Part shown: in pieces, positions 33,162 to 52,079 of the stretch | Layout: each line of letters opens with the position of its first letter | Numbering within the stretch: position 1 is the first letter of the stretch | Assembly (NCBI GenBank): GCA_031409335.1 | Contig: JANNWY010000014.1 | Span: 1 to 52,288 of the forward strand | DNA length: 52,288 nt | Reading direction: 5' to 3' | Source of the DNA: Chthoniobacteraceae bacterium | GTDB taxonomy: Bacteria; Verrucomicrobiota; Verrucomicrobiia; Chthoniobacterales; Chthoniobacteraceae | Position numbers and translations under genes: made by a program | Notes under the pieces: model-generated | Database searches by the model: none | Seen by the model: only the letters and a program-made list of their open reading frames with translations | What the model was told of the DNA's origin: nothing

Positions 33162-34111
33162 GCTGCGTCTCCTCTTGCGGTCAGGGATTGCTCGGCGCGC
33201 TGACTGGCGAGTTGCAGCAGTTCAGGCACGGCTTCGATATACCAATAGGTGTGCTCCGGATCGGTATGGCCGAGATAGGTGCTCAACGTGTGCATCTCTC
33301 GATCGGGGGCCAGTCCCTTTCGATACCATTCCACGATGGTTCTGACCGCAAAGGTGTGCCTGAGATCATGCACCCGCGGACCGCGTCCGAGCTTGTAAAA
33401 AACGGTAACCGAGCGCAGGCCGATGCGCTGGCACACCAAGGCGAAGTTATAGCGGGCGGCGCAATCGGTCGGACGTGTGCCGTTTTCCGTGAGGAAGAAA
33501 GGCGCGTGACCGGTTTCCAAAAGGCGGTCACGTTCGGCGCGATATGCTTTGAGCCGCATGGCAACACTCGTCGAGACCGGCACGAGACGCTCTCGACCGT
33601 TCTTGCCATGCCGGATCACGAGCACGCATTCACGCAGATCGACATCCGCCTCATCCAATTTGATGGCTTCATTGATGCGCAGTCCGGTGGTGGCGATGAG
33701 CCCGAAGAGGGTCGCATAGGTCCATCCGCGCAACCCATAAGCGGAAGGCAGACGCGCGGCTTGCCCAACGATCCGCGCGATCTCGTCCGCACTATAGATG
33801 TAAGGGCGTGGTCGGCGCCGTTTTCCATGGATCAAACCCGACGGCGGCATCTCCGTCCGCGGATCGACACTCTGCAGCCAGCGGGCGAAGCCGCGCACCA
33901 TGCCCAGGCGCGCGCTCCAGGTAGTGCTGTTGGCCGAGCCAAAGTGCGCCTTCCAGCGCAGGAACAGATCGACCGTGACGTGGCTGACTCCCTCGCCATC
34001 GGCGAACTCGGCGAAGCGCCGCAACACCCGGCCGCTGTCGGCGAGATCGAAGCCAAAGCCGCGACGCACTGCGAGGTAGTTGGCCAGGCGGAGGGTGAGC
34101 GTTGGATTCAT
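33158..34111 (-). CDS. ritB: Tyrosine recombinase RitB
   Basis: ATG 34111 with AGGAGG SD and ATGA overlap; TGLRINEA, HDLRHTFAV, LSTYLGH, TYWY. Confidence 0.9.
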   Translation of the reverse strand: MNPTLTLRLANYLAVRRGFGFDLADSGRVLRRFAEFADGEGVSHVTVDLFLRWKAHFGSANSTTWSARLGMVRGFARWLQSVDPRTEMPPSGLIHGKRRRPRPYIYSADEIARIVGQAARLPSAYGLRGWTYATLFGLIATTGLRINEAIKLDEADVDLRECVLVIRHGKNGRERLVPVSTSVAMRLKAYRAERDRLLETGHAPFFLTENGTRPTDCAARYNFALVCQRIGLRSVTVFYKLGRGPRVHDLRHTFAVRTIVEWYRKGLAPDREMHTLSTYLGHTDPEHTYWYIEAVPELLQLASQRAEQSLTARGDAA

Positions 34112-35340: not shown

Positions 35341-35479
35341 GAATGCTCCTATCGGTCGGGCTGAGAGGAGCGCCCAGCGACAACCAGTCGCGTCAAACAG
35401 ATGGAACCATGCAGACGACCAAATTATGCCGACATCACCAGCCGCCTCCTTTGTATGAGCCAACGCTCCGCAGCCCCAC

Positions 35480-36551: not shown

Positions 36552-38558
36552 TCAAACCGTTCCGCCCGACTTAATCCAAGCGGCCGGGATAAGATATTCG
36601 TCGTGATTCTCACGCCAGTTTCCGACCAAATGCACATTCGGGATTCCGTGCCATGTGATTGATCCAGCGTGTTCGGTGACGATGATCTGAAATTGGTTTC
36701 CAACTGCTTCGAGAAAATGAGCGAGCGCTCGGAAAATTCTCCGAACGCCTTCAATGTCGGCTGAGCTATCGCCCTTTGACGTAGCCGTTGAAGCTTGATC
36801 CATAGTTGGCCAAGCCTCTGGGAAATAGACCTGGCTTGGCTGATCCACCAAAAGAAAACGGGGGACTGGATTGTGATTCAAACGGATGAAATGCTCATGA
36901 AGTGCCAACAAGCCAGCGATGTGATAACCGACCCAGTTCTGGCCACTGCCTACCTCCCAGAGAAAATCGGTTCGACCGGACAGCGGACTGAATTGAAGGG
37001 TAAGTTCCCGAATGTTGAGCCGGACATTTTCTGTCGCGTGCTCAAGGGTTAGCAAACGGGCGTACTCCGCCACTTTCGCTGAAACTGTATCAATAGCAGC
37101 GTTCAGCCGATCCCGTTGCGCGCTTGGATCAAGGTCTCGCTTTAAGACAGCGATCCTTTCCGCGAGGACTCTTACTTTCTCCCGCAGTTCGTCCACGTTG
37201 CGACTGACGGCAACATTCTCCAATGCCTGTTCTACGCGACCAACGAAAAGGTAAATCTGGCGGACACGCTGACGCTGGGCCGCTTGCGCGGAAGAACGGT
37301 TCTCCAAGTATTTCCGTTTCTGCCGCACTTTGGTGATCTCGGTCTCAAGCGAGCGAAGTTCCTGCCGCAACGCCGCCACTTCCTGGTCCAGCTTGGCGGG
37401 CGCTTCATGGACTGTTGCGGTAAGTGTTCTCAATTCAGTCGCGAGGGTTTTCAGTTCGGCCAGACGAGAATTGCCGTCGGTGTGAACCGCAGCGCAAACG
37501 GGACATTCGTGTGGGTTGCGTAGCTTCTGCTCAAACCAGCCGACACCTTGGAGGCGGTCTTCCTGCGCCGTCAGCGTCGCACCGTAGTCCCCGACAGACG
37601 ACGACAACTGGTCGAGCTTGCCCAAGCGTCGGCTAACCGAGCCTATTTGCTGTCCCAACTCATCCTCCTCGTTGATGAGGCGGGTAAGCTCTGCAACAGC
37701 CGCCTCGCCTGTTCCTTCCTGAACGTCGGGAAGGTCCATCGTCCGCACAGTCTCGGGAACTTTCTGTAGTTCCAGCATGTATTTATCGAGCGACCATCCT
37801 TGTTGCGGAGCCGGAGAGTCCGGGAGAAGTCCGAGCGTTCGCGCCTGTAAGTAGTAGCTTTCCACCTCGGCTTCCCATGCACGCGCTGCCGCGAGCCGAG
37901 CGTCAAGCTCCCGTCGCAGGCGATCATGTTCTCGCTCCGTATCTTTAAGTTCGCGCTGCTTGGCTAAAGTGCCGGCGTCGATGGCCCCAAGCACAAGCGG
38001 GAAGATGATTCGCAACTTTTCGCGATGCTCTGACGTGTCTGCTTTGAAAAAGAACGTGTAGGGATTGGCAACGATATGCTGTGGCTGAAAATTGAACGCT
38101 GCCATATCTCGACAGCTTGGCCGACCGCCGAAACCGACGTTGTCGTCGGTGGAAAAATCGAGGGCAGGTAGATGGGTGATTTGGTTGAGGCGGTTTTTAA
38201 GGTCTTCGACGCGGGCATTCTTTCTCACCACTGGCGGGACGTTCAGTTCCAATCCCTCGTCCCAATAGAGATCAGTAGTCGTCTGTTGATCTTCGGGATT
38301 TCGGCGAGCCACGATCATCTCAGTATTGGCCAGTTGGAGATGGAGGCCGAACCAACCAGTGACTTCACGGATCAATCCTACCGGAATCGAACATTTGTCG
38401 CTTCCGAGGCAATAATCGACGATCCAAGTCAAAGTTGATTTTCCCGTCGCGCTCTCGCCGGTAATGACGTTGATCTTGCCGGGAAGGAACTCGATGATGC
38501 GAGGATCGAGCGTCGAGTCTTTCGGCCAGAGGATGACTTTGAGGATCGCCAGTTTCAT
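36552..38558 (-). CDS. lmuB: Lamassu SMC-like ABC ATPase (DUF3732)
   Basis: Walker A GESATGKST; coiled coils around a CPVC zinc hook; signature GSGQNWVGYH; Walker B FLLVDQPSQVYFP; IIVTEHA. Confidence 0.9.
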   Translation of the reverse strand: MKLAILKVILWPKDSTLDPRIIEFLPGKINVITGESATGKSTLTWIVDYCLGSDKCSIPVGLIREVTGWFGLHLQLANTEMIVARRNPEDQQTTTDLYWDEGLELNVPPVVRKNARVEDLKNRLNQITHLPALDFSTDDNVGFGGRPSCRDMAAFNFQPQHIVANPYTFFFKADTSEHREKLRIIFPLVLGAIDAGTLAKQRELKDTEREHDRLRRELDARLAAARAWEAEVESYYLQARTLGLLPDSPAPQQGWSLDKYMLELQKVPETVRTMDLPDVQEGTGEAAVAELTRLINEEDELGQQIGSVSRRLGKLDQLSSSVGDYGATLTAQEDRLQGVGWFEQKLRNPHECPVCAAVHTDGNSRLAELKTLATELRTLTATVHEAPAKLDQEVAALRQELRSLETEITKVRQKRKYLENRSSAQAAQRQRVRQIYLFVGRVEQALENVAVSRNVDELREKVRVLAERIAVLKRDLDPSAQRDRLNAAIDTVSAKVAEYARLLTLEHATENVRLNIRELTLQFSPLSGRTDFLWEVGSGQNWVGYHIAGLLALHEHFIRLNHNPVPRFLLVDQPSQVYFPEAWPTMDQASTATSKGDSSADIEGVRRIFRALAHFLEAVGNQFQIIVTEHAGSITWHGIPNVHLVGNWRENHDEYLIPAAWIKSGGTV

Positions 38559-39047
38559 TTAGAATCGGATATTCAATTGGGTTGAGAGTTGGACAATGCT
38601 CATTTCCCCGAAAGCCTGCCCAACACGCTTCGCTGCGTTCAAGATTAACTTCACCTCGTCCGTGACGTGGGTCACGGGAGCTGTCTTCCTACCGGGAATG
38701 AGTTGGCGCTGATGATCCTGATCGAGCAGAAGCAATTCGGTCTGGAAGCCGATGGATAGTGCCTGAAAGGTGCGACTGGACATCGCTTCCATTCGCTCCT
38801 GGAGACCAACAGTGAGTTCCCGGTCGTCGCCAAGCGCCTTGTAGAGAGCGCCGGGTTGAGTTTTCGAAGCCAACACCGTGGCGGTCCGTTTATGGAACGT
38901 GAGGGGAAGGACGAGGAACGCCAATGGGAACGGCACACCTTCGGAGCGACCCCTGGCCTCGTGCGCCTCATGCACCGCCTGCCAAATCGCCTCCGCTGCG
39001 AGCCCCGTATTCTGAATCACTCGCTGCTCAAAGAGAATGTCAATCAT
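38559..39047 (-). CDS. lmuC: Lamassu / ABC-three-component middle component
   Basis: 162 aa, between effector and ATPase; PLAFLVLPLTFH..T and AAKRVG motifs. Confidence 0.82.
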   Translation of the reverse strand: MIDILFEQRVIQNTGLAAEAIWQAVHEAHEARGRSEGVPFPLAFLVLPLTFHKRTATVLASKTQPGALYKALGDDRELTVGLQERMEAMSSRTFQALSIGFQTELLLLDQDHQRQLIPGRKTAPVTHVTDEVKLILNAAKRVGQAFGEMSIVQLSTQLNIRF

Positions 39048-40231
39048 GGCTGGATCAGTTCGCGCATGAGTTGTTCAAACCGTGGATGCCATCCGATTTT
39101 CAGCAGTTCCGCCAGACGATGATAGGTTCCGGAAGTGAGATAGACCTGCTCCGTATCGCTGCCAGCAAGTTTCTCGCAGTGTGCTTCAGTAGTGTCGGTG
39201 AAAACCTCAAAACCAACGTCTTTCTCCGGCGCGCCGTGCCGCATTCGAGTGATGCGTGCGCGGATTTTATCCCAACGCGATAGCAATGTTGATTCAAACG
39301 ACAACCAGTCGTCGTCAGTGATGTTCCCTTCCGCTGACAGGCGAGCTTTCTCGATGTTGCAGCGGACAAATTCGCGGATCGAGGTATCCACGACACTGTC
39401 GTCATCGGTGATCAGATGAAGCTGCTTCACAAACAGGCTTTCCCTCTCTTCACCGATTCTGTCCTCGCCTACGGGAATGAGATGCTCGGCTCGTTCTCGG
39501 CTGATCCGTCTCTTCCGAAGATCAATAATCGCGTGAAGCTGGTTCACGAAATGATCGCGTCCAATCCAAGCCGGTTGTTTTTGTTGCCAGCTCGCCAAAG
39601 CAGTCCGGTGCATCCAGCCCAAAAGCTCGTCCGCGATGGAACCTGCATTACACGCACACCATACCGGCAACTGGAGATGTCCGATCGTTTTTGTTCGGAG
39701 CTCGTCCCCCGCTGTATCCGCCGAGGCATCCGCCAATCGGCAACGGTCGATCAACTTCCGCAAATTGGGGCGTGATGCAGGGTGCATAACGCGCTCGACA
39801 AGCGCCTTAATGCCGCCCGGAGGGGAGAGCGCCGCCAATTCGAGCGCGGTGACGCATGCCTCAATTTCCTCCTCCGAATTCGCCCGCCCAATCTTTTGGG
39901 CAATGCACTCGGGCAACGCTTTGTTCGTCACCATCATGAACAGCGTCTTCCCTGCAACGACTTCGCCAGCGTCCAACGCTTCGATCCAGATTTTTAGCGT
40001 ATTCCACAAATCTTTGGAGCGATTTCCGAAAGGCTCGGCGTCCTTTTGAATGGAGTGTTTGTCCTGCTCTAAAATCTGCGTCGCGTCACCTCCGCGGACG
40101 GCGACATCATCATCTGTTTCGACGCCGACTAGGCTGCCTGCCGAACTTTTGGCGAGGTAATACAACGCGCGTTCGAACTGAAAGCTGAAGCCCGCATTAC
40201 TCCCCGGCGCTGAATGGTCGGAAAGGCTCAT
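39044..40231 (-). CDS. lmuA: Lamassu effector: Cap4-like PD-(D/E)xK endonuclease + ABC-3C C-terminal domain
   Basis: GFSFQFERAL, VETDDDV, EQDKH, DLWNTLKIW; C-terminal GTYHRLA..IGWHP. Confidence 0.85.
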   Translation of the reverse strand: MSLSDHSAPGSNAGFSFQFERALYYLAKSSAGSLVGVETDDDVAVRGGDATQILEQDKHSIQKDAEPFGNRSKDLWNTLKIWIEALDAGEVVAGKTLFMMVTNKALPECIAQKIGRANSEEEIEACVTALELAALSPPGGIKALVERVMHPASRPNLRKLIDRCRLADASADTAGDELRTKTIGHLQLPVWCACNAGSIADELLGWMHRTALASWQQKQPAWIGRDHFVNQLHAIIDLRKRRISRERAEHLIPVGEDRIGEERESLFVKQLHLITDDDSVVDTSIREFVRCNIEKARLSAEGNITDDDWLSFESTLLSRWDKIRARITRMRHGAPEKDVGFEVFTDTTEAHCEKLAGSDTEQVYLTSGTYHRLAELLKIGWHPRFEQLMRELIQP

Positions 40232-40441: not shown

Positions 40442-40894
40442 TTAGCCGCTCACACTCAAGCCTTCTGCCAGAGCCACGCCGCGCTGGTTTTCATCGAAGC
40501 TCAACAGCTCTGTCGCGCCAAGTTGAAGCGCGAAGGCGAGGTGCAGAATATCCATCGCTCGCGCTCCATGTCGCGGCGTGTGGTCAAGCGCCAGCTTCTC
40601 CGCGCGGGTGACGACGCCTTCCCACTCCGACGAAACGACGGCCCACACGCTCTGCTCGACATCCAATTCAAAAGCCGCCAGCGCCGACTGCGCGACGGAT
40701 TCGCTCAAGCCGAGCGGCTGGCCTTGCGCGTGCAATTAGACCTTGAACCACACGGCGTGCTGAAACTCGTAGCGCACGAGCGAGGAAATCAGCGGCGCGT
40801 CCTGCAAGGATTCCATCTTCGCCACCGCCTGCTCGGAAACCGCGCGCGGGAAGTAGAAGGCGAAAAGGAAGCTCGTGTCCGCAAAGGCGCTCAC
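40442..40894 (-). pseudogene. vapC: VapC-like PIN toxin interrupted by in-frame TAA (40738-40736)
   Basis: GTG 40894 overlaps the antitoxin stop. Reads MSAFADTSFLF...VRYEF..WFKV*LHAQ...RAMDILH...LLSFDENQ; all four PIN acidic positions are present across the stop. Confidence 0.85.
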
Positions 40895-41163
40895 ACCGTC
40901 CGCTCGCGCCGAAGGTCCGCGAATTCCTCAGTCACGGAAACCTGACTGGCAAAGGCATCCGGCCCCCACATCTTCAAAAACCGGGCGCGGAAGTCGATGG
41001 GCGGCCACTTCGATGTCCCGCTGGGTTCCACGGTCGCCTTGCGCGGCACCCATTCAGCCACTTCGCGCCCGTCGCGCACGACCGCAACCGATTCACCCGA
41101 AGCCAGGTAGGGGTCGAGCTTATGCGGGTCGGCGTAGATGTCTTCGAGCGCGAGTGTTTTCAC
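40891..41163 (-). CDS. Phd/YefM-like antitoxin
   Basis: Likely GTG start at 41163: MKTLALEDIY...GESVAVVRDGREVAEWVP; directly upstream of the PIN gene. Confidence 0.75.
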   Translation of the reverse strand: MKTLALEDIYADPHKLDPYLASGESVAVVRDGREVAEWVPRKATVEPSGTSKWPPIDFRARFLKMWGPDAFASQVSVTEEFADLRRERTV

Positions 41164-41171
41164 GATGCGCT

Positions 41172-41197
41172 GACGATGCCAGAGTTTCGGCAGCGTC
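41172..41197. promoter_or_regulatory. Putative TA operator (imperfect palindrome) in the likely promoter
   Basis: GACGATGCC-agagtttc-GGCAGCGTC just upstream of the antitoxin start; on the - strand TTGCGA-17 nt-CATCGT is a weak promoter match. Confidence 0.4.
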
Positions 41198-41234
41198 GCA
41201 ACCGTCCCGATGGGAGTGCGCGGTGTCTTGAGGT

Positions 41235-44200
41235 TCATACTTTCATCGCTGGGGCCATATTCTTTTTCGCACGAAGGCTCTGCGTCGGCCTTTCTTCGGT
41301 GTCTTCGGTCGATTGCTCCGCACCTTCGTCGAGTTTGGCGGATGCTTGGTTCTTCGTAATGTCGAGCGCGGTGACGATTTCCTGCTGGCGTTTGCTCGCT
41401 GTCGTGAGCTTTTCCTCATGCTCGAAGGGATGGTCGAGTTGCTTGGTGAGGTCTTCGCTTTGCTTGCGATACTGCTGAAGATCCGTTTCCCGTTCGCGCA
41501 GTCGATCCGACATGCCTTCCAGTGCGTGCTCGACGGATGCGATGGTGCCCGCTGGGCTGTCGCTCACGTTGGCTTTGTATTCGCTCTTCCCGTGGATGAT
41601 AAGCGCCGCGCGCTCATCGAATTTGCTGAGCGTGATGGGGAAACCGCCGATGGTGCCGATGGTTTTCGTCGCTTGAAACGGCTTCAAGGCTGCCGCCATG
41701 AAGACGAGTGCGCGGCCCGCCTTCACGCGATCGGTGAAGGCTTCCTTTTGCACCGTCATCGAAAAGCTGTCCCCGCGCGTGCTCGTGCGGATGCGCAAAT
41801 CTTCGCGGACGTTCGCGATGTCGCGCTCGCACGTTTCCACACTGCCGACGAGGCTGCGGATGCGAGAGCGCATTTGGTAGAGGCTTTCCGCGTGCTGCTT
41901 TTTTAAGCGCGTGAGCCGCATCACTTCGGCATCGACCTGAGCCTTCTCGATGACGAGCGGATTGCCCGACGCGATGGCCTTCACCTCCGCATAAGTCAGC
42001 GCCGCCGAGTCCACGTCCTCGGCGCGGCGCACGGTCGCGTCGCCATTCATCACCTGCGCGATGAAGCGGCATTTCGTTTCGAGCGTCTGCCACATATAGG
42101 CGTCGAAACTGCCTTCGGTGACATAGCGGAAAATCTTCACATACTCGTTTTCATTTCCCTGCCGGAGAATGCGTCCCTCGCGCTGCTCGATGTCAGCGGG
42201 ACGCCACGGCGCATCAAGGTGGTGCAACGCGACGAGGCGCTTTTGGACGTTGGTTCCCTCCCCCATTTTCGCCGTGCTGCCGAGTAACACGCGGACTTTT
42301 CCCTCGCGCACATTTTTGAAAAGCGATGCCTTGCTGGTGTCGTCGTCGAAGTCCTGGATGAAAGCGATTTGGTCGGCGACAACTCCCCGTGCGATGAGCT
42401 TTGCGCGCACGTCGTCATAGACCGAGAATCCTTTGCCTCCGGCCTTCGGCGTCGAGAGGTCGCAGAAGACGAGCTGCGCGCCTTTGGTCTCCGCCGAGTC
42501 GAGCCAGATTTGATGAATCCTCTCGACGGCCTGATTGGTCTTGGAATCCGGGTTGTCGCGCACGCGCGGCAGCACGAGCCGAAGATCGAGCGCAGCTTTG
42601 CGCCCGTCCGTGGTGACGTTCAGCATGTTGTCTTCCCACGGCTCCACGTCGCCGTTCTTGATCGCCTCCACGCGCTTGATGAGGCTTTCGACGTATTTCT
42701 TCAACTCGGGACTCGTCGGCGCGCTGACGGTAAGCGGCCTGCCTTGGTCGAGTTTCGGCACCGGCAATTTCAGCATCTCCGCCGTCTGCACGTCGGCGGT
42801 TTGCCGAAATTGCTGCATGAGTTCCGGCACGTTCACAAAGCGCGCGAAGCGGCTGCGCAACCGATAGCCGCTGCCATCCGGGCTGAGTTCCATTGAAGTC
42901 ACCGTCTCGCCGAACGTGCCCGCCCAAGAATCGAAATGCTGGAGCTGATTGCGCCGCAGTGCGCTCATCTGCAAATACCGCTGCATGGTGAACATCTCGG
43001 CCATCGTATTGGAAATCGGCGTGCCCGTCGCGAAGACCACGCCGCCGCCTTTGTTGCGCGACTGGATGTGCTGCACCTTCAAGAACATATCGAAGGCGCG
43101 CTCCGAAGCCGTCTGCGGCAGACCCGCGACGCGGGTCATCTTCGTGACGTAGAAAAGGTTTTTGAACTTGTGCGCCTCGTCGATGAAAAGCCGGTCGATG
43201 CCGAGTTCTTCAAAGGTCAGCGTGTTGTCCTTCTTATGGTCGGCAGACAGACCTTCGAGCTTGGCCGTGAGCCGCTTTTCGATCCGCTCCAATTCCTTTA
43301 CGAGCCGCGTTCCGCGCTCGCTCCGCTGTTCGCGAATCGCTTGTTTGATTTCGTAAATCTGATCCTCGATGAACCTGCGCCGGGTTTCGATCGCGACAGG
43401 AATCTTCTCGAAACTCGAATGCGTCACGATCACGCCATCCCAATTCCCCGTCGCGATGCGGCTGAAAAGCCGCGCGCGTTTCGCCGCCGCGAAATCTTCC
43501 TTTCCGGCCACGAGAATGTTCGCGGTCGGATAGAGCATCAGTAACTCGGCGGAGAACTGGCCGAGCATGTGATTCGGCACCACGAACATCGGCTTCGTTG
43601 CCAGCCCCAGCCGCTTCAACTCAATGCCCGCCGCGACCATTGTGTAGGTCTTGCCCGCGCCAACGGCGTGCGCGAGCAGCGTGTTGTCGCTCTGCACGAT
43701 CCGCCAAACGCCGTTCTTTTGGTGCGGGCGCAGAATGATTTGCTGGCTGCTCGATGGCAGCGTGAGATGGCTGCCATTGAAGACGCGCAACCGCACGCTG
43801 TTGAAGTCGTCGTTGTATTTGCGGCAGAGCCGTTCGCGCCGCGCATCGGCCTCCCATATCCACGCCCGAAACCGCTCTTTGACCTTCTCCATCTTGTCCC
43901 GCGCGCCTTCGGTCTGCTGCACATTCACGACCGGCGCATCCGTCTTCGCATCGGTATCATAGACCGTCGGCGTTTTGAGATTCAGTGCGTCCTGAATCAG
44001 CTCAATCGCCGAGTAGCGTGTGGTGCCCCATTCCGTCGTATTCGCCACGGTGCCGCGGGCGGCGAAGTCCGCTTTGACAAACCAAGTCCCGACCGCCGCC
44101 GCGTGCGAAACCGTGATGCCTTCCGCACCAAGCAGCGACTTCGCGAACGCCTCGACATCCGCCGGCGGAATCCACACCGCACCAAGCCGCGCTTCGATCT

Positions 44201-46397
44201 CCGATGGTGTTAAATCAACTGGCTGCACCGCCTCCAATGCAGTGATGTTTTCGTGGTAAGCCGGATTGGCTGCGGCTGCGGCCCGCGCGTTCTCCAGCTT
44301 CACGCGCACATCGCCGGAAAGATATTCGTCGTCTGTTTCCCACTGCTCGGTTTGCGGATTCCGATAGATCAGCCCTTTCAACTCCGGCAAAAACTCCTCG
44401 GGCGGTTTGCGCAACAGCATCTCGATGCGCGCCAAATCCACGCGACCCATTTCGTTCAACGTAAGAACCAATGCGTCCTGCGGTGTCTCCGCGAGCAGCG
44501 CGGTCTTTGGCTGATGAATCGTCCGCTCGCGAAAGATCGCCATCTTCACGGCCCGTTTTGTCTCGTCGTTGTAGTCTTCCAACGAGCACAGCAGGGGCGC
44601 GTCTGGGTCGCTGCGAAACGCGCGCCGGTTGGCGTTGTCGTTGACCGCGCCAAAGCGAGAAACGAAATGATCGTATTGGAAATTAAGCTGGCGACGTGCA
44701 TCGAGAACCGCCTCGTCGCTCCAATCCTCAAGTTGCGTGCGGAGCGTGTGCCGCACAGCATCGCGCAGCTTAATCATCCCGCGAATCCGGCGTGCTGTTT
44801 CATCGGGGAGACCTTCCACCGGCGTCAGCGCCGGGCCGTCGCGCACCATGATCGTGCCCTCATGCAGCACGAAGGCATTTTCCTTCACGTAATCCGGCGC
44901 GAGGATTTCCACCCGTGCGGCGGCGCGCGAAGCGTTCGCGTGTTCCAACGCGCGGTAGATACCCTGCGGCAGCGCAGCGACAGCTTCGCGCAACGCATCC
45001 GCTAGTTCGCGGCCATCGGGAATTAGCGCCGGTTCGTTTGCGCGATACATCGAACTCTCGTGCGCCATCGTGCCGAGCATCATGCGTGGGTTTGCCGCGA
45101 AGTATTCATTGATCTGAAAAGCCGTGCCGTCCGCGTTGACGTGCTCGGCAAGATTCAACCACGCCGGGCCGGCCGCTCGCTCCCCTTCCGCGAGTTTGCG
45201 GAAGAAAACGATGTCGGTCGTGACCTCAGTATTCGCGTTCAGCTTGAACGCGGTATTCGGCAGACGGATTGCGCCGATGAAATCGGCCCGCTCGTGCAGG
45301 TAATCGCGAAGGTGGGAGTTCGCCTTGTCGAGTGTCCCTTTCGAGCTGATGAAAACCATCAATCCGCCGTCCCGCACCTTCTGAATGCCCTTCGCAAAGA
45401 AGTAATCGTGGACGAGAAAGTTCTGCTCGTTGAGCTGCGGATCGTGGAGCTTGTAATCGCCAAACGGGACGTTGGAAATCGCGAGGTCGAATGAGTTTTC
45501 CACGAGCGCAGCCGTCTCGAATCCTTGGCCGCGAATGTCGGCGTCGGGATAGAGCCTGCGCGCAATGTTCGCCGTCAGCGGATCGACCTCGATGCCCGTG
45601 ATCCGCGAACGCGCGCTCATTTCCTCCGGCATCAATCCGAAAAAATGCCCGGTGCCGAGCGCCGGTTCCAAAATGCGTCCGTCGGTGAAACCAAGCCGCT
45701 GCACGGCATCGAACATGGCCGTGACGACAACCGGGGCCGTGTAATGTGCGTTCAACGTCGAAGCCCGTGCCGTCTCGTATTCCGATTCCGTGAGCAGGCT
45801 TTTCAGCCGCTCACGTTCCGCATCCCACCCGCTCGACTCATGCCACGCGAAGACCTGCGGAATCCCACCCCATCCCACATACTTAACGAGCACGCGCTTT
45901 TCCTCGTCAGTCGCCGCGCGATTTTCTTCGTCGAGTTCGTGGACAAGTTCGATGACCGCAAAATTGTCGCGACACTTTTGTTTGAGCGAACCATCGCCCA
46001 ACGCATCCTCCGCCCGGATGCGATAGTTGCCGGTATTTAGACGCTCAGGCTCTCTTCCACTGGAAGGAGAATATACTTCTCCCGGATCATCTCCCACGCC
46101 TGGTCGTGCGCCTGCTGCGCCGTCAAGCCCTGCTCCCTCTCCAGCTTCCGCGTGAGCGTTTCCATTTCGTCCAGAGTCATTTCCTGCGCCTCGTAGAGGG
46201 CTTCCGTTAGCGTGCCCTTCGCCGTGAGTTCCTTCACCATTTGCGGACGGAATTCCGTCCAGTGGCGTTTCGCCATGAGGCCGTAGCCGGTTAGTGGGTA
46301 GGTGGTCATCGGATGTGTCCTTTCTGGATGGCAGGAAATCGAACAGACTCAACTGTTGTTCCGGCTGCGCCGTCGAATTTCCGTTGCGCTTTAGCAT
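41235..46397 (-). CDS. N6-adenine methyltransferase + SNF2/SF2 helicase fusion (DarB-like, ICE-associated)
   Basis: YVGWGG, NAHYT, ILEPALGTGHF (motif I), ISNVPF (motif IV); AHAVGAGKT, FIDEAH, ATGTP, QREGRILRQGN. Confidence 0.9.
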   Translation of the reverse strand: MLKRNGNSTAQPEQQLSLFDFLPSRKDTSDDHLPTNRLRPHGETPLDGIPSANGEGTHGEGHANGSPLRGAGNDSGRNGNAHAEAGEGAGLDGAAGARPGVGDDPGEVYSPSSGREPERLNTGNYRIRAEDALGDGSLKQKCRDNFAVIELVHELDEENRAATDEEKRVLVKYVGWGGIPQVFAWHESSGWDAERERLKSLLTESEYETARASTLNAHYTAPVVVTAMFDAVQRLGFTDGRILEPALGTGHFFGLMPEEMSARSRITGIEVDPLTANIARRLYPDADIRGQGFETAALVENSFDLAISNVPFGDYKLHDPQLNEQNFLVHDYFFAKGIQKVRDGGLMVFISSKGTLDKANSHLRDYLHERADFIGAIRLPNTAFKLNANTEVTTDIVFFRKLAEGERAAGPAWLNLAEHVNADGTAFQINEYFAANPRMMLGTMAHESSMYRANEPALIPDGRELADALREAVAALPQGIYRALEHANASRAAARVEILAPDYVKENAFVLHEGTIMVRDGPALTPVEGLPDETARRIRGMIKLRDAVRHTLRTQLEDWSDEAVLDARRQLNFQYDHFVSRFGAVNDNANRRAFRSDPDAPLLCSLEDYNDETKRAVKMAIFRERTIHQPKTALLAETPQDALVLTLNEMGRVDLARIEMLLRKPPEEFLPELKGLIYRNPQTEQWETDDEYLSGDVRVKLENARAAAAANPAYHENITALEAVQPVDLTPSEIEARLGAVWIPPADVEAFAKSLLGAEGITVSHAAAVGTWFVKADFAARGTVANTTEWGTTRYSAIELIQDALNLKTPTVYDTDAKTDAPVVNVQQTEGARDKMEKVKERFRAWIWEADARRERLCRKYNDDFNSVRLRVFNGSHLTLPSSSQQIILRPHQKNGVWRIVQSDNTLLAHAVGAGKTYTMVAAGIELKRLGLATKPMFVVPNHMLGQFSAELLMLYPTANILVAGKEDFAAAKRARLFSRIATGNWDGVIVTHSSFEKIPVAIETRRRFIEDQIYEIKQAIREQRSERGTRLVKELERIEKRLTAKLEGLSADHKKDNTLTFEELGIDRLFIDEAHKFKNLFYVTKMTRVAGLPQTASERAFDMFLKVQHIQSRNKGGGVVFATGTPISNTMAEMFTMQRYLQMSALRRNQLQHFDSWAGTFGETVTSMELSPDGSGYRLRSRFARFVNVPELMQQFRQTADVQTAEMLKLPVPKLDQGRPLTVSAPTSPELKKYVESLIKRVEAIKNGDVEPWEDNMLNVTTDGRKAALDLRLVLPRVRDNPDSKTNQAVERIHQIWLDSAETKGAQLVFCDLSTPKAGGKGFSVYDDVRAKLIARGVVADQIAFIQDFDDDTSKASLFKNVREGKVRVLLGSTAKMGEGTNVQKRLVALHHLDAPWRPADIEQREGRILRQGNENEYVKIFRYVTEGSFDAYMWQTLETKCRFIAQVMNGDATVRRAEDVDSAALTYAEVKAIASGNPLVIEKAQVDAEVMRLTRLKKQHAESLYQMRSRIRSLVGSVETCERDIANVREDLRIRTSTRGDSFSMTVQKEAFTDRVKAGRALVFMAAALKPFQATKTIGTIGGFPITLSKFDERAALIIHGKSEYKANVSDSPAGTIASVEHALEGMSDRLRERETDLQQYRKQSEDLTKQLDHPFEHEEKLTTASKRQQEIVTALDITKNQASAKLDEGAEQSTEDTEERPTQSLRAKKNMAPAMKV
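46037..46309 (-). CDS. TnpV-like small protein overprinted on the helicase N-terminal linker
   Basis: AGAAAGGA SD 8 nt before the ATG. Pattern YGLMAKRHWTEFRPQMVKELTAKGTL...AWEMIREKYI resembles the TnpV/DUF1896 group (from memory). Confidence 0.7.
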   Translation of the reverse strand: MTTYPLTGYGLMAKRHWTEFRPQMVKELTAKGTLTEALYEAQEMTLDEMETLTRKLEREQGLTAQQAHDQAWEMIREKYILLPVEESLSV

Positions 46398-46398
46398 A

Positions 46399-46722
46399 TC
46401 AAATCGTGAGCGACCGCGAACAGGTTTCTTGTCGCAGCGCCGTCTCCCGGCAGCGGTTCGCGATCACCTGCTCCCTTTTCAATTGGCACGCGACCGCGGC
46501 GACATGCACCGCGTCTCTGCTGAAACTCGGATTGTCGCGGAAGTAGGCTTCCACCCGCTTTTCAATCTCAGGATCGTTCAGAGCCTCGACGCCTGCCCCC
46601 AGCGCCTCCTTCAGTTTTTGGCGGTAGAAGTCATCTGGAATCTCCCCTGCCCGCGAAGGTGTCGCGCTGCCGCCGTCAGCTCTGGTCGAAAGATTGGCAA
46701 TTCGTCGAATCACAATCCCCAC
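46399..46722 (-). CDS. Hypothetical ICE protein (start uncertain)
   Basis: The 3' ~100 codons look protein-like (DDFYRQKLKEALG...VEAYFRDNPSF) and the stop lies 1 nt before the helicase ATG. The track's upstream extension runs through hairpin DNA. Confidence 0.45.
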   Translation of the reverse strand: MGIVIRRIANLSTRADGGSATPSRAGEIPDDFYRQKLKEALGAGVEALNDPEIEKRVEAYFRDNPSFSRDAVHVAAVACQLKREQVIANRCRETALRQETCSRSLTI

Positions 46723-46748
46723 GATGAACGAAAACGCCAATTGGACGG

Positions 46749-46919
46749 CTCCGCCGGTGGAGCAACTTTTACCGGCGGAGTCCGCCCCTCGATGTGGCCG
46801 CGCAACAGCGTGGAGCGGCGACATCATTTGCTTTGCGTGGCGGGCGGGGAACAAAGTCTTTCGCCTTTGGAGCAAGCCCGCGGCAGCGAAGGCGGCGCGG
46901 AAAAGGCGAAAGTCTTTGT
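46749..46919. other. Hairpin-rich intergenic region (candidate ssDNA-folding signal)
   Basis: CTCCGCCGGT/ACCGGCGGAG (46749-46780) and an 18-bp stem ACAAAGTCTTTCGCCTTT/AAAGGCGAAAGTCTTTGT (46851-46919) with one T-T mismatch. Confidence 0.65.
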
Positions 46920-46947
46920 GCGGCGGCGCGGCGTGGCCCGTCGAAGG

Positions 46948-47337
46948 TCAGACCTTCACGCCCGCTGCCGGAGTCTGCTTCGGCGCGGTCGCTCTCATCG
47001 TCTGGCGGGCAATGGAAATCATCGCCTTTTCCCGCTGCTCCTCGGGCATGTTTTTCACCATGTTCTGAATGCTCGCTTTCATCTCCGGGTTTTCGTCCAG
47101 CTTCCGCATGATGGATTTCTCCATCTTCTGCGTGCGGTCCTCCTTTTGGATTTCGGTGAGGACGAGCGCGCGGGCCATGCGATCAGGCGTCATGGATTGA
47201 ACGTAGTCCCAATACTTCGGATTGTTCTTAATGTAGTCGTCGATCTTGGCGTTGACCTGCGGGTTTTCCTTAAACTGCGGCTGCTGGCCGTCCTGCGCTG
47301 CGTCGCCGGGTTCTGCTTTTGGTTTTCCTTTGAGCAT
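46948..47337 (-). CDS. Hypothetical helical ICE protein
   Basis: Clean 129-aa ORF with protein-like composition, co-oriented with the operon. Confidence 0.7.
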   Translation of the reverse strand: MLKGKPKAEPGDAAQDGQQPQFKENPQVNAKIDDYIKNNPKYWDYVQSMTPDRMARALVLTEIQKEDRTQKMEKSIMRKLDENPEMKASIQNMVKNMPEEQREKAMISIARQTMRATAPKQTPAAGVKV

Positions 47338-47370
47338 AAGTAGTAGTTTCTTATTAAGTGTCGCGATGGG

Positions 47371-47589
47371 TTAGTGAGCTGCGGCGAGCAGTCCCGACGA
47401 ATGGAAGATCGTGGAACAGCAAATGTCGGCGAGGTCGATACCGTCCTCCTCGTTTTCGACGATGAGCGACATAAGGAACGGAATGCCCGGTGACTTACCG
47501 AGCCGCCGTGTGATCTCCTGATCCGCTTGAACATACATTTCGTATTTCTCCGCACTGACTTCGATGGTGATGTGGTGTGTGTCTTTCAT
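47371..47589 (-). CDS. Small hypothetical protein, possibly ribbon-helix-helix
   Basis: ATG 47589 after an A-rich leader; alternating strand HITIEVS followed by two helical segments. Confidence 0.55.
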   Translation of the reverse strand: MKDTHHITIEVSAEKYEMYVQADQEITRRLGKSPGIPFLMSLIVENEEDGIDLADICCSTIFHSSGLLAAAH

Positions 47590-47635
47590 GTTTTTGGTTT
47601 TGGTTTCTTTGACGCGAAAAGGCGGGCGATGAAAT

Positions 47636-48229
47636 TCACCACTCGGACTTTTCAAATTGTTCCGGCAGTCGCTTGGCCGGCGTTGCGGATGGTTTCGCGC
47701 GCAACTGTTCTTCCAGCGCATCGAGCCTTTGCCTGGCGGTATCGACCTCCTGTTTGAGTTGTGCGTTTTGCGCGGCGTTCTGTTGCGTCTGCTGGAGTTT
47801 TCCCGCCAGTTCCCCGAGCTTTTGCGTTACCGCTTGCCCACATTGCATCATGGCCTTGGTGGCTTCCTTCTGCTGGTTCAATTCCGCGACCAGCTCATCG
47901 CCAGCGGGCGAAAGCGTTCGGGCACTATCACGAACGCGAACCGGACCGAGCGGCACCGCGGTCGGCTCATTCGGATGCAGATTCCATTTCGCCGTAGTCT
48001 CCACGCGATAGATGCTGTGACCCTCGTGCATGATGCGCCGGTTGCTGGGATCGACGTAGCGGCCAAGTGGGTAGGCTTTGATGTTCTCGGCATAGCGCAC
48101 GCTCTCCATGCCATCGTTCGCGAACGTTGTTCCTGGCACAGCGCGAGCACTCATGTCCACGATACGGGCGGGCTTCGTCGCGCACGCGCCAAGCACGAAA
48201 GGCATTGAAATGAGCAGAGCGAGTTTCAT
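47636..48229 (-). CDS. Coiled-coil lipoprotein of the conjugation operon
   Basis: Lipobox LGAC; C-terminal Q/E-rich coiled coil; coupled to the virB10-like stop. Confidence 0.7.
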   Translation of the reverse strand: MKLALLISMPFVLGACATKPARIVDMSARAVPGTTFANDGMESVRYAENIKAYPLGRYVDPSNRRIMHEGHSIYRVETTAKWNLHPNEPTAVPLGPVRVRDSARTLSPAGDELVAELNQQKEATKAMMQCGQAVTQKLGELAGKLQQTQQNAAQNAQLKQEVDTARQRLDALEEQLRAKPSATPAKRLPEQFEKSEW

Positions 48230-49362
48230 CAGCGGGGAGTGGGTTGTGGAGTAACGATGCTCGGGAGCAGCGAACGGGGCGTACCGCCTGACTCCGAGTT
48301 AGGCACGGTGAGGCGTTGCAGATTCTTCCGCAGGCGCACCAACGGATCGTTCGGGTCTTCCTTTTCCTCCTCGGTGCCTTTGCTTGCGACGAGCCGGGTT
48401 CCGCCGATGATCGCCTCCGAGCGGTCAATCGTCTGCGTCACATAAAGGTAGAACTGTTTGCCTGCGGCCACCCGGACGTAGAAGCCATCGCGCTGGATCG
48501 TTTCGAGGATCTGTTTCGCATAGGTATTGAGCACTTGTTGCGCGCCAACGAGCGGCGCGTTTTGCAGCGAGGGCGCGGTCTGGCTGCCGAAGATAGTTTG
48601 CTCCTTCTCCGTCAGCCCGCTGGCTGCGCCGCTCAGGAAGCTCGCGGCGAAAAGTTTGATCTCCGCTAGGTCGTCGCTTTTGAGCAGCTCGCCGCGCAAG
48701 CCTGCGCTGCCATCCGTGATGCCCCATCCGTTGCCGTCCGCCTGTTTCTCGCGGTCGAGCGCGAGACCGTTCACGGTTAGTTCTTCACCGCCCTGCCACA
48801 CGAGCGTCCAATTTCCGCTGCTGGCGATCCGCTCGCGCACACGATCCACCTTCGCAGTGCCGTGGACTTCGGTGCCTGCGGGAATGATGAGTCGCCCGTT
48901 GTGCCAGATGTCATCGGTCACTAGGCCGATGATCGGCGTGTTGATTGAGGACGAATCGACAGTCACGATCAACTCGCACTGCACCAATCGGCCAAACGGC
49001 GCGTAGTCAGAGCCGAGTGTGTCCACCGTTTTGTCCGTGCTCACCGTTTCCGCGTAGAGGCTGATCGGCGGCAAGCCCGGCGGCGGTTCCGGCTTCTTTC
49101 GCTCGGGCAAAGGCGCTGGCGTTGCTGGTGGCGGCAGTTCCTTTGGCGGATTGAACGCGGTCATATCCCGCGTGACCGTTTCGACCACCTGGGCCTTTCG
49201 TTCCGTCTGCTCCGGGCCTTTGACGATGGGTTTCACCAGCGCACTCATATTCGGCACGCCGAACCCATTCACTAGATAGTAGCCGATACCCAAGAGCAGC
49301 AAAAAGAGCAGGAAGGCTCCCGTGCGACTGCGAAAGAAATTGATCGCACTGCGCGGACTCAT
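48229..49362 (-). CDS. virB10: TrbI/VirB10-family T4SS protein
   Basis: N-terminal TM, Pro-rich linker, APFGRLVQCEL..TVDSS..PIIGLVTDDIW..LIIPAGTEVHG, DGSAGLRG, YVRVAAG. Confidence 0.78.
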   Translation of the reverse strand: MSPRSAINFFRSRTGAFLLFLLLLGIGYYLVNGFGVPNMSALVKPIVKGPEQTERKAQVVETVTRDMTAFNPPKELPPPATPAPLPERKKPEPPPGLPPISLYAETVSTDKTVDTLGSDYAPFGRLVQCELIVTVDSSSINTPIIGLVTDDIWHNGRLIIPAGTEVHGTAKVDRVRERIASSGNWTLVWQGGEELTVNGLALDREKQADGNGWGITDGSAGLRGELLKSDDLAEIKLFAASFLSGAASGLTEKEQTIFGSQTAPSLQNAPLVGAQQVLNTYAKQILETIQRDGFYVRVAAGKQFYLYVTQTIDRSEAIIGGTRLVASKGTEEEKEDPNDPLVRLRKNLQRLTVPNSESGGTPRSLLPSIVTPQPTPR

Positions 49363-50267
49363 TTTGCGAATCCTCCCCGTTTGTCGCGTGGCACACTTTG
49401 CGCCGCCTTGGGTGTTGCCGCTTCGGCAGTGGTAAGCAGCACCGTGAAATCGTTCTTGGTCGAAACGTCGTTGCGCCCGCCGTTCGGTGTCCCTGTGATG
49501 GCGAAGTAAGCTGGCGTGTCGCTCTTCGGCGGCATCACGCCGCTCGCATCGCTAATGGACTGCGAAAAGAGACGTTCACCGACGCGCAGCGAAAACCCTT
49601 GCGGCTCGTAGTGAATCTCTTTGTCCGTCTTGTTTCGCAGCACGACGCGGAAGACGAGCGTATCCTGCGGATCGAAACGGAAAACCTCTTCCACGCGAAC
49701 TTCGTAAGCGTTGTAGTCCATTATTCGCGGCGTCTCGCCATAGGTCACGTAATCCACCTGCTCGACGGCTTCTGGATGGCTCGCCTTCAAAACGGGATAA
49801 GCCTTGGCCTTGTCGAGCAAGCCGACGAGCGAGCCGGGCGTAACCAACCTTTTTGCGAACGATGACTTCCCGGTATCCGTGGGATATTTGAAAATCACCG
49901 AGAGCTGCGGCGTGGTGCTGTCCTGCAATTCCAGCACGTAAGTCTTGTTATTCCAACGGACGTTGACGTTCGTCGTCGCGCCTTTGACCAGACTGCGCAC
50001 TGAGAAGAAGTAGGAGCCCGGTTTGTGCGCCAACGGAAACAAACCGGGCATCTTTCCGTCCGTCGTTACAAGGGCCGCATCAATCGCGGAAATCGGCCCC
50101 GGAAAGCTCACCGTAGTCACCCGCGAGAATGACACCGGCACTGCGCAAACGCTGTGCTCATCGAGGTCACGCTCTTGAATCTGCTTCGCCTCAACAGCCA
50201 GCGAATAAGCGTGGACAACGAGGAGGACTGCGAGCAAGAGGAGTGGAGACTTACCGTGCCGGTTCAT
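49359..50267 (-). CDS. VirB9/TraK-like secreted T4SS protein
   Basis: Signal peptide, VTTVSFPGPI, beta-rich; lies between the virB8-like and virB10-like genes. Confidence 0.55.
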   Translation of the reverse strand: MNRHGKSPLLLLAVLLVVHAYSLAVEAKQIQERDLDEHSVCAVPVSFSRVTTVSFPGPISAIDAALVTTDGKMPGLFPLAHKPGSYFFSVRSLVKGATTNVNVRWNNKTYVLELQDSTTPQLSVIFKYPTDTGKSSFAKRLVTPGSLVGLLDKAKAYPVLKASHPEAVEQVDYVTYGETPRIMDYNAYEVRVEEVFRFDPQDTLVFRVVLRNKTDKEIHYEPQGFSLRVGERLFSQSISDASGVMPPKSDTPAYFAITGTPNGGRNDVSTKNDFTVLLTTAEAATPKAAQSVPRDKRGGFAK

Positions 50268-50928
50268 ATTTGAAATCGCTCACCGCAGTTGGGAACCGCC
50301 CGTTCCTGGTCATGTCAGGATTTCGGCGCATCTTGAAGGACAGCTTGAACGGAATGGATTCGCTGAATGCCTTCTGCTCGAAAATGCCGGTGCGGATTAG
50401 TTGCCCGGTTACTTGCGTCATGACAAAGTCCTCCCGCGTTTCGAGGATGTCGATTTTTGCAACTTCGGGCTTTTGGTGAAGCTGCTTGGATTTCATCTCA
50501 TCCGTCTCAGTGAGAATTTGTTTCTGCGCCTTCTCGCAGGCGTATTTCAGGAATGCCTGTCTGAGCAGGTCGGGACTATCGAAGCCCTTCGGATTGCGCT
50601 CCAGAAATGCCATCGTTGCCAGCGTGCTTTGCTGCGCGTGAAAATCCTTTGCCTCCTGAAAATCCATCAACGGCGAAACAAAGTATGTGCCCGCCGGATC
50701 GACGATAACCACTCGCTCCCGTTGCTTGAGTTTCTGAATGAGAAAGTATGGCTGCGCCGCGGCGAAGATGATCGCCAGCACTGCGACGCAGAACCACAGG
50801 AAGGCCGTGCGGTCCTTGTCCACGAAAACGCGCGTTGGATTCGCAGTGCTGCGCGATAGCGATGCGGGATTGGTCTTCACCGGCGTTTCGCGGACAGGCT
50901 GTGGACTCGCTTCGCTCGCGCTGCTCAT
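50251..50928 (-). CDS. VirB8/TrbF-like T4SS protein
   Basis: Single N-terminal TM followed by RVVIVDPAG and an NTF2-like periplasmic domain ending RNPD...FPTAVSDF; synteny. Confidence 0.6.
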   Translation of the reverse strand: MSSASEASPQPVRETPVKTNPASLSRSTANPTRVFVDKDRTAFLWFCVAVLAIIFAAAQPYFLIQKLKQRERVVIVDPAGTYFVSPLMDFQEAKDFHAQQSTLATMAFLERNPKGFDSPDLLRQAFLKYACEKAQKQILTETDEMKSKQLHQKPEVAKIDILETREDFVMTQVTGQLIRTGIFEQKAFSESIPFKLSFKMRRNPDMTRNGRFPTAVSDFKYEPAR

Positions 50929-52079
50929 GCCTTGCCTCCACCCTGTTTGGATTGGTCGATCATATGCTGCACTTCACGGTCATTGCTGGCATCAGCAGCA
51001 TTGAAAGGCTTCGCCGCAGGGGCGGGCGTGCTGCTTTGCGCGCTGGCCTGGCTTTGTCCACCTCCACCGCCGCCGGATGATTTGCTGCTTCGCGGCAGAC
51101 TGTGGGCGAGTTGCTGCACCATCGAACCGCTCAAGGGCGAGCCTCCGCCTTGCATCGTCGAACCGGCGAGGCTCCCCGCCGCCGCCGCTCCGGCCCCCGC
51201 CAGCGCGCCCGTCGCGCCCGTGCCGGCGGTTGCCAGCGTAGCCGCCGCTCCCGCTCCCGCTGAGACGGCAGCCGCTCCGGCGGTCATCGCCCCACCAAGC
51301 AGCGCGCTCCCGATCTGCGCGCCGGAGGCAATGGCCAACTGGATGATGACCGGCGCAATGAGCGTTGTAACGATGATCCATCCCCCAACCGCGGCAGCGG
51401 CCAGCATAGTCTGAAGACCATAGACGTTCGTTAAGACCACGAGTCCTTGTTCGGTGGCCACGTCGATCAAGTTACTTGTCCCGATGGATGCCGCCGCCCA
51501 TCCGAGCGGCCACGCTAGAATGCCAACCGTGCCCATGATAAAGCGAAGACCAACAGTGCTCGTGGATCGCAGCGCCAGCATACTGAGAAAAATAGGTGCA
51601 AACGAGTAAGCCAGACCCGTCAAAAACTGCTGCACGATGTAGGCTGCCCAAATGATGAACTGCGCCAGCAAGCCGATGAGGGTGAGGATTCCCCAAAGCA
51701 GCGCCTCATAGAGCTGCGCCACGCTCGGCAGTCCGAACCAGCCTTCCTTCTCTTTCGGCTGTTCTTTCGAGACTAGAATATCGACGTATCGCTGCGCAGC
51801 CTGTTCCGGGTTCGCGTCCATCTTCGCAACCACAGTCTTGAAGGCTTCCTTAGCTTGGTCCGTCCAGCTACCCCACAGCGCGATTGACATGACAAGCATC
51901 ATGGTCGTGACGATCGGGCGCACCATTGAGCGGGGCGTTTGTGAGTGTTTCACCACGGCGATCAAGCCAGAGACGAGCAGCACTGCGGCAATAGGCAGGA
52001 GGATCGTGTAGAGCGTCGTGCATTGCGTCTGGAAGCTTGGGAACAGACGTTGAAATGTCGGAAGAGCAGCGAGGAACAT
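50925..52079 (-). CDS. VirB6/TrbL-like polytopic membrane protein
   Basis: Several TMs, APIFLSML, WPLGW, Gly/Ala-rich C-terminal tail typical of TrbL. Confidence 0.7.
   Translation of the reverse strand: MFLAALPTFQRLFPSFQTQCTTLYTILLPIAAVLLVSGLIAVVKHSQTPRSMVRPIVTTMMLVMSIALWGSWTDQAKEAFKTVVAKMDANPEQAAQRYVDILVSKEQPKEKEGWFGLPSVAQLYEALLWGILTLIGLLAQFIIWAAYIVQQFLTGLAYSFAPIFLSMLALRSTSTVGLRFIMGTVGILAWPLGWAAASIGTSNLIDVATEQGLVVLTNVYGLQTMLAAAAVGGWIIVTTLIAPVIIQLAIASGAQIGSALLGGAMTAGAAAVSAGAGAAATLATAGTGATGALAGAGAAAAGSLAGSTMQGGGSPLSGSMVQQLAHSLPRSSKSSGGGGGGQSQASAQSSTPAPAAKPFNAADASNDREVQHMIDQSKQGGGKA

Follow-up and report, generated by a model that had tools for sequence, protein, structure and literature searches.

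The window analysed here is a 52,288-nucleotide (nt) stretch of contig JANNWY010000014.1 (assembly GCA_031409335.1) from a Chthoniobacteraceae bacterium. It carries on its minus strand a gene for a DarB-like methylase-helicase of 1720 amino acids (aa), here called the host gene, and within the N-terminal linker of this gene a 90-aa gene of the TnpV family (PF14198) is nested in another frame. Comparison with homologous loci confirmed that this fully nested and conserved TnpV gene, with its predicted physical link between both products, is real, and the 273 bases concerned almost certainly encode two proteins, the +1 frame giving what would be a folded TnpV-family protein and the main frame a predicted-disordered linker of the methylase-helicase. 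To judge from a model of the two products in complex, the methylase-helicase gene likely carries its own regulator hidden inside it.

Two reading frames over the same 273 bases

The features of the locus are as follows.

46037..46309, minus strand: nested TnpV-family gene, 90 aa, +1 frame; the same bases are host linker aa 30-121
46318..46325, minus strand: Shine-Dalgarno (SD)-like sequence AGAAAGGA, 8 nt 5' of the nested ATG (from the sequence; duplex -5.3 kcal/mol)
46341..46355, minus strand: QLSLF, sliding-clamp-binding-type motif, host aa 15-19 (predicted from the sequence)
41235..46397, minus strand: host gene, 1720 aa, DarB-like N6-adenine methyltransferase plus SWI2/SNF2 ATPase with a short N-terminus (open reading frame, Pfam and motifs)
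44958..46037, minus strand: N6-adenine methyltransferase region, host aa ~121-480, end approximate (model; fold and profile matches)
44796..44879, minus strand: predicted TnpV contact patch 1, host aa 507-534 (complex model)
44565..44636, minus strand: predicted TnpV contact patch 2, host aa 588-611, a conserved xRAFxxDP..P.L..LE stretch (complex model)
42156..43739, minus strand: SWI2/SNF2 ATPase region, host aa 887-1414 (Pfam stretches)

The initial annotation had placed a 90-aa open reading frame (ORF) inside the 1720-aa ORF, on the same strand and in a different frame, and both the coordinates and the frame were verified. According to the ORF list the nested ORF runs from ATG to TAA wholly within the 1720-codon host ORF, with its first base at position 2 of host codon 30 and its end over host codons 120-121. 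Over the whole 273-nt overlap the host frame is free of stops, as had been claimed, and NYRI...YVGWGG is read in that frame directly after the nested stop. The GC content at the three codon positions of the overlap is 0.61/0.38/0.80 in the nested frame and 0.80/0.61/0.38 in the host frame, the former resembling the helicase body (0.62/0.42/0.75). With synonymous recoding that kept the nested protein and local codon use, the chance of an open host frame in the window was P ~0.064; the open frame of the window alone is modestly surprising and not decisive, and it is the homologous sequences that lift the case above chance.

We gathered 102 close loci, dropped one (L099) that had no TnpV match, and retained 101, which include the window locus and some duplicates. 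Across the nested gene the host frame was open in 100, closed in none and cut off in one, so that all complete loci (100/100) were open. A QL[SDNG][LF][FL]-type motif lay upstream in the host frame in 96 loci, an ATG ahead of the motif in 94 and the methylase in frame downstream in 93; motif, ATG, open frame and methylase were jointly present in 88. The exceptions were contig ends and decayed copies, together with L004 (an upstream shift) and L008 (a stop ahead of the motif), and shifts within or directly after the nested gene were seen in L007, L010 and L088, 'open' being uninformative for L010 and L088. Locus scans were run with a narrower alignment (A3), the sequences of a broader one (A2) being too divergent for this purpose. 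Among the best 80 of 337 genome loci, nearly all of them Verrucomicrobiota-type (other phyla were sampled via plasmid and phage records), the host frame was open and in frame with the methylase in 79/80, and the methylase match lay in the host frame in 174/176 loci, though its distance from the nested stop spans -100 to +62 nt. Conservation in both frames supports the true dual coding that the initial annotation had proposed.

A stop would form in the host frame wherever a nested codon ending in T precedes AA, AG or GA. After removal of four shifted or truncated loci, the remaining 97 (pairwise nucleotide identity at least 57%, median 73%) had a stop-forming T at 0/1396 at-risk junctions, a count that overstates the number of events in that related loci are not independent. 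Among 30 representatives below 80% identity the count was 0/440, with 70-75 expected, and T use at the other nested-codon junctions was normal (205 vs 192). As a control, the single-coding helicase body had T at 402/3217 sites of the same context, and 31/174 of its 85-codon windows were open. A further set of 61 loci had been filtered for an unbroken host frame, and its stop counts (0/98, 0/392 and 0/388) are circular and are not evidence.

The counts of codon endings that give host cysteine or tryptophan are unaffected by this filter. T endings gave host Cys at 0/73 and host Trp at 2/81 positions, against 28% and 22% in the controls; on the tree, changes giving host Cys numbered 0/16 (control 405/1099, p 0.001) and Trp-giving changes occurred on 0/111 branches (control 6%, p 0.002). 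The nested gene had a mild reduction in synonymous change (10.4 vs 14.2 changes per codon), and four-fold-site divergence in the nested-gene comparison was 0.53 vs 0.60. The initial annotation had looked to homologues for frames that both stay stop-free and for suppressed synonymous change; both frames did prove stop-free in nearly all of them, but strong suppression was not seen. Because synonymous change is only mildly suppressed, the host linker would be selected mainly for staying open, and the host frame over the overlap is likely a translated, low-constraint linker. From the aligned sequences, both frames are kept by selection, with the host start and a QLxLF peptide upstream in the host frame. 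Overlaps in the +1 phase are, according to PMC2542354, favoured by composition alone, and such a bias accounts for the phase found here but leaves the avoidance of stops unexplained. The TnpV frame is probably the older one and the host linker the derived reading, because TnpV is folded, has normal codon-position GC and also occurs alone; the title of the initial annotation, which put the TnpV gene inside the helicase, thus probably had the direction of overprinting reversed.

The two products and their starts

The nested protein matched the TnpV profile PF14198 marginally but over the cut-off (28.9 bits, cut-off 27, E 1.2e-6; profile positions 20-94 of 111), and 557 homologues were found. Its model is an all-helical bundle with a mean predicted local distance difference test (pLDDT) score of 83.8, in keeping with the helical, family-like sequence noted at the outset. 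The ORF starts with ATG or GTG in 100/101 close, 81/81 genome and 18/18 phage-type loci, a median net charge of -3 makes the protein mildly acidic, and residues H16, W17, W72, E73, R76, E77 and Y79 are invariant. Foldseek gave no match to the model at E <= 0.001 in PDB or BFVD, the best VIA match had Z 5.9 (root mean square deviation 2.4 over 55 residues), an Atlas search returned TnpV-like clusters only, and no solved sequence relative of TnpV was found in the search; the missing structural match does not show a new fold.

In the host protein, Pfam recognised only SNF2-rel_dom (26 bits, cut-off 24.9), ResIII (over cut-off) and Helicase_C (just under), without further fused unrelated domains, and the methylase region gave M.TaqI/M.BseCI-type matches by profile and fold. 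The motifs LEPALGTG (243) and NVPF (309), presumably the S-adenosylmethionine-binding and catalytic motifs of an N6-adenine methyltransferase, precede AVGAGKT (911) and DEAH (1073). AlphaFold2 assigned pLDDT <50 to aa 1-116 and mostly 70-95 from ~aa 121, and aa 30-120 hold 20 Gly, so that the Gly-rich, disordered linker described exactly at the overlap is borne out as a prediction.

The motif QLSLF, reported upstream in the host frame, is indeed found at host aa 15-19, where pLDDT is in the 30s. In a frame-blind search of 182 loci, 175 had QL[SDN]LF in the host frame, one had it in the third frame and none in the nested frame, and six gave no motif. Its third codon positions vary among loci, and the variants among the 101 close loci were QLSLF (43), QLNLF (33) and QLDLF (7). 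The sliding-clamp-binding consensus is given as QL[S/D]LF (PMC12309361), and the host's predicted-disordered terminus carries exactly this consensus, conserved in frame, which makes it a putative clamp-binding site. A targeted literature search found no paper on a clamp motif in methylase-helicases of mobile elements. QxxLF-like motifs also lie between the N-terminal part and the methylase in the Firmicutes and actinobacterial relatives L212, L214, L218, L224 and L225, which suggests that clamp tethering is common in the DarB-like family.

The strong SD described before the nested ATG is present in the window (AGAAAGGA at 46325-46318), but it is not a general trait. A strong SD (dG <= -5) precedes the nested ATG in 21% of 63 close loci with a script-found ATG and in 10% of 80 genome loci, and most Verrucomicrobiota-type loci lack it; of the phage-type loci, 16/18 have one ahead of the ATG closest to the TnpV match.

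Two alternatives raised in the initial annotation bear on whether the host frame is translated through the overlap at all. One is a programmed frameshift that fuses the frames (TnpV-methylase-helicase by a -1 shift or N-terminus-TnpV by a +1 shift), so that the open frames are parts of isoforms. Most Verrucomicrobiota-type loci do have the nested stop no more than a few codons away from the start of the methylase, and an upstream annotated gene in the record of phage PBC5 runs into the TnpV frame. However, X_XXY_YYZ heptamers occur in 3/61 loci, none common in both position and sequence (+1 shift sites were not searched for), a -1 fusion could do without a fully open host frame and without a start and QLxLF placed upstream in the host frame, and the nested ORF has its own conserved start; we consider a fusion very unlikely. 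The other alternative lets the helicase start at TTG46001; the upstream open frame would then be untranslated chance, and T-ATG-CT at 46398-46393 would serve as the -10 box of a TnpV promoter. GGAGG (-9.5 kcal/mol) precedes this TTG, TAnnnT lies over the host ATG in 81/86 close loci and the host ATG has no SD, although a missing SD is not unusual, as most neighbouring genes also lack one. The column is TTG in 7/61 aligned loci and mostly CTC, ATC or CTT, the NYRI upstream of it is conserved, and in phages an open host frame typically extends >700 codons upstream of the nested gene. TAnnnT is moreover limited to one clade, being found in 0/85 other loci, which retain the ATG and QLxLF, and no sigma-70-type site was found within 45800-47800. 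A start at TTG46001 is, in our judgement, highly improbable, and we retain the translation of both frames.

The TAnnnT at the host start of the close clade (46398-46393, minus strand) may have a dual role as host start and promoter element; a promoter there would give a TnpV-only transcript.

Nesting in phages, plasmids and DarB-like genes

A distant homologue of the nested protein was found in 20 phage records (11 phages), where all matches lie under an annotated gene that is mostly DarB-like. In six phage records and one plasmid record the match is in the +1 frame ahead of the methylase and no stop interrupts the host frame as far as the methylase (7/7), and the same holds for 12/12 viral-contig loci that had a profile hit (14 loci, two without a hit); L196 and L197 had no TnpV match and were dropped. 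Over the 80 genome, 12 viral-contig and 7 annotated-record loci, the third frame was open in 0/99. Across the 18 phage-type loci, no host-frame stop was seen where 71 were expected.

The Firmicutes member of the family scores 62.9 bits against PF14198, and its 28 plasmid matches fell in a SNF2, helicase or LPD25 coding sequence (21), a TnpV-labelled one (2), another gene (1) or no feature (4). Four of five plasmid matches checked were nested, all on AT-rich Firmicutes plasmids, with 0 host stops each against 10.3, 11.1, 14.1 and 11.2 expected. A stand-alone TnpV on a 6.8-kb plasmid has 7 stops in the frame equivalent to the host, and TnpV sequence itself therefore does not force an open host frame. 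In a reverse test on 17 hand-picked DarB-like loci, a clear nested family member was present in 3/17 (L212, L220, L221), a +1 ORF of ~100 or more codons with a weak or no profile score occupied the same place in 7/17 (L206, L207, L208, L213, L214, L219, L211), and no call was possible in 2/17 (L209, L217). The weaker cases of nesting include an actinobacterial plasmid and a Bacteroides phage. Phage and Firmicutes relatives of the host have long N-terminal parts, unlike the window's protein.

Annotation of these loci is uneven. The nested gene is listed in 0/6 phage records checked, and one Enterococcus record has TnpV and a shortened SNF2 gene annotated, yet the host frame is open through TnpV. 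In L200 (phage PBC5, ~7700-8300) the annotated gp22 ends in the TnpV frame owing to a shift by one base shortly before the nested gene, which may be a sequencing error or a real fusion. The Pseudomonas putida conjugative plasmid of L211 (NZ_CP039372, 1950-2700) has the same short start, a QMTFDF motif and an open linker that overlies an annotated 101-aa gene with little TnpV similarity, followed by a one-base shift after the nested stop. In L219 (Bacteroides phage BKO1-TP3, 2130-2441) a 103-codon +1 ORF before the methylase has no TnpV score and is possibly an unrelated nested gene, and in L203 (Pseudomonas phage Itty13) three opposite-strand ORFs annotated over an open DarB-like frame of >4000 codons are likely a mis-annotation.

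A predicted complex and what it may mean

We modelled TnpV with host aa 120-719, each entered as a 61-row alignment, the model covering the part of the enzyme ahead of the ATPase. The three runs gave ipSAE interaction scores of 0.73, 0.65 and 0.57 (median 0.65), the best of three controls scoring 0.00; the mark applied is reached by 116/157 solved and 2/215 mismatched pairs and is a rough guide here, as own alignments were used. At least 77% of contacts agreed between runs and partner pLDDT was at least 83. The predicted contacts join host aa 507-534 and 588-611, in the domain past the methylase core and including the basic residues R591, R592 and R595, to TnpV residues 3-15, 46-58 and 63-68. 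The search found no solved sequence relative of the post-methylase domain either, and with none for either partner a score carried over from known structures is unlikely. At several contact positions both partners differ in a coordinated way between the verrucomicrobial set and the phage set, as do TnpV Y9/W and host G596/D and L600/W, a pattern that clade divergence alone could produce.

On this model TnpV probably binds the host enzyme, and given binding we find it fairly plausible that it restrains the enzyme rather than activating it. We lean slightly towards TnpV as a binding partner encoded together with the enzyme, which it would likely restrain or escort up to delivery with the DNA. 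TnpV would have an internal start of its own on the shared mRNA and presumably be made in molar excess over the 1720-aa enzyme, and it would bind the domain directly after the methylase as a chaperone-inhibitor, keeping the enzyme in check in the donor cell or during virion assembly until a new cell is reached. After transfer TnpV would be released, and the enzyme, possibly tethered to the sliding clamp, would methylate and protect the incoming DNA; nesting would guard against enzyme and regulator being lost or expressed apart. Restraint is suggested as the sign because an acidic TnpV would sit on a predicted basic patch, likely in molar excess, and because TnpV-bearing mobilisable elements of Streptococcus suis mostly insert into the helper's snf2 gene (PMC9815147, PMC7168690). 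A broader and more speculative reading, to which we give somewhat less than even credence, is that TnpV is the hidden cognate regulator of DarB-like methylase-translocases, embedded in the linker of the enzyme it binds across phages, plasmids and integrative and conjugative elements, the two forming an inseparable enzyme-inhibitor unit, with stand-alone tnpV genes as escaped copies that disarm or redirect a helper's enzyme.

Several results weigh against a nested gene kept throughout for a restraining partner. Genome locus L169 has one host-frame stop inside the overlap, Cys avoidance is non-significant when counted per branch (0/34, p 0.17) and Trp avoidance is based on few columns. No nested TnpV-like gene was found in 5/17 DarB-like loci of the reverse test (P1 darB, L210, L215, L216, L218), and by these comparisons nesting is widespread but not universal, the enzyme family being able to exist without the nested gene. 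Interface residues are no more conserved than the rest, with entropies of 1.35 vs 0.90 for TnpV and 1.39 vs 1.26 for the host. The invariant TnpV residues are absent from the named contacts and may form the core or a second surface of the model, and the conserved patch stretch also occurs in L216 and L210, both of which lack the nested gene. No result here sets the sign of regulation, and restraint is deduced from the features given above.

The same complex prediction would serve equally if TnpV activated or loaded the enzyme, as an adaptor to DNA, the conjugation machine or the virion, with stand-alone copies borrowing a helper's enzyme. The invariant C-terminal residues outside the named contacts, a possible second surface, favour this, as do the stand-alone TnpV genes on the 6.8-kb plasmid and on mobilisable elements, but insertion of the S. 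suis elements into the helper's snf2 would fit conflict better than borrowing, and a mildly acidic protein on the predicted patch fits masking; activation appears unlikely. Both frames may also be translated with TnpV acting independently of the host protein, for example as an excision helper, nesting then serving co-expression only. In Tn4451/Tn4453-type mobilisable transposons TnpV is encoded by a separate gene near a serine recombinase and has a postulated Xis-like role (PMC3158075). Stand-alone copies indeed occur on elements with serine recombinases, and the interface is not unusually conserved. Yet the TnpV model is all-helical, unlike the winged helix that is the fold of Xis, the complex prediction passed, and the gene's place just before the methylase is constant in phage virion genes and conjugative elements. 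We hold an independent role to be a rather improbable account and prefer TnpV as a restraining partner.

Genomic context and comparison with known systems

Upstream of the host gene and co-directional with it lie conjugation-type genes:

46948..52079, minus strand: TrbI/VirB10-like and CagX/VirB9-like genes with unnamed neighbours

TrbI scored 63.7 bits, over its Pfam cut-off, and CagX fell under its own. A VirB10-like match was present in 29/83 loci having at least 5.9 kb upstream, and the window's methylase-helicase gene likely sits on a conjugative element. Three tandem tyrosine-recombinase genes at 32166-35463 (minus strand), which we take to be the layout of a recombinase-in-trio element, are a possible left part of the mobile region. 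Downstream of the helicase, three genes at 36552-40231 (minus strand) match an ABC-three-component defence system (CTD7, MC3, DUF3732/AAA_23). At 40442-41238 (minus strand) a 115-aa ORF overlaps the helicase stop and is followed by a PIN-domain ORF, likely a toxin-antitoxin pair, which was not found in 83 related loci. The stretch 19-31672 (plus strand), a chromosomal host region, holds a long series of genes in one direction, which are of planctomycete-type cytochrome/DUF1501, glycosyltransferase and glycoside-hydrolase-like kinds.

Where annotation shows one frame only, the other gene is missed. Two genes may be lost when one darB-like gene is deleted, and a recoded version would lack the inner gene without anyone noticing. 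The predicted complex supplies a function-less Pfam family with a concrete target and a testable interface, and offers a handle on the control and delivery of DarB-like anti-restriction enzymes. We found no paper whose title or abstract describes TnpV nesting, in a search outside subscription papers and supplements.

DarB of phage P1 is delivered with DNA and protects it from restriction, and the window's enzyme shares with it, and with the N6-adenine methyltransferase and SWI2/SNF2 modules of polyvalent proteins, the order of methylase then SNF2 ATPase and a place on a mobile element (PMC5512222). P1 darB has a short N-terminus without a nested TnpV-like ORF, whereas the window's gene has one, and unlike polyvalent proteins the window's protein has no extra enzymatic domains ahead of the methylase. 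The main text of that survey makes no mention of TnpV, overlap, clamp or frameshift, and its supplements could bear on nesting. The DarB-like protein of phage JC1 is present in virions, and no embedded gene in its gene is mentioned in the relevant part of PMC9144972. As in Tn4451, the window's TnpV is a small, helical protein on a mobile element that scores over the PF14198 cut-off, but tnpV of Tn4451 is a separate gene by a large serine recombinase whereas the window's copy is nested in a methylase-helicase; no serine recombinase family was found among the 40 window ORFs scanned.

Same-strand nested genes include comS in srfA, rpmH in Thermus and gndA in gnd; fully nested cases characterised in bacteria are few, two being named for the time before 2019 (PMC11230408). 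Rz1 is likewise embedded in Rz (PMC9144972). The window's gene is of the kind of comS, gndA and Rz1, namely a complete ORF that has a separate start and lies out of frame within an unbroken host ORF, and here both frames are conserved. Rz and Rz1 form one spanin. GndA relocalises the host-frame product, and is narrowly distributed and likely de novo (10.64898/2026.10.22.760973). As with GndA and Rz-Rz1, whose nested product acts on or with the host-frame product, binding is predicted here; in contrast to GndA, the nested TnpV belongs to a folded family that is old and has stand-alone members, and the same layout is found in Verrucomicrobiota elements, in Firmicutes plasmids and in phages of Proteobacteria.

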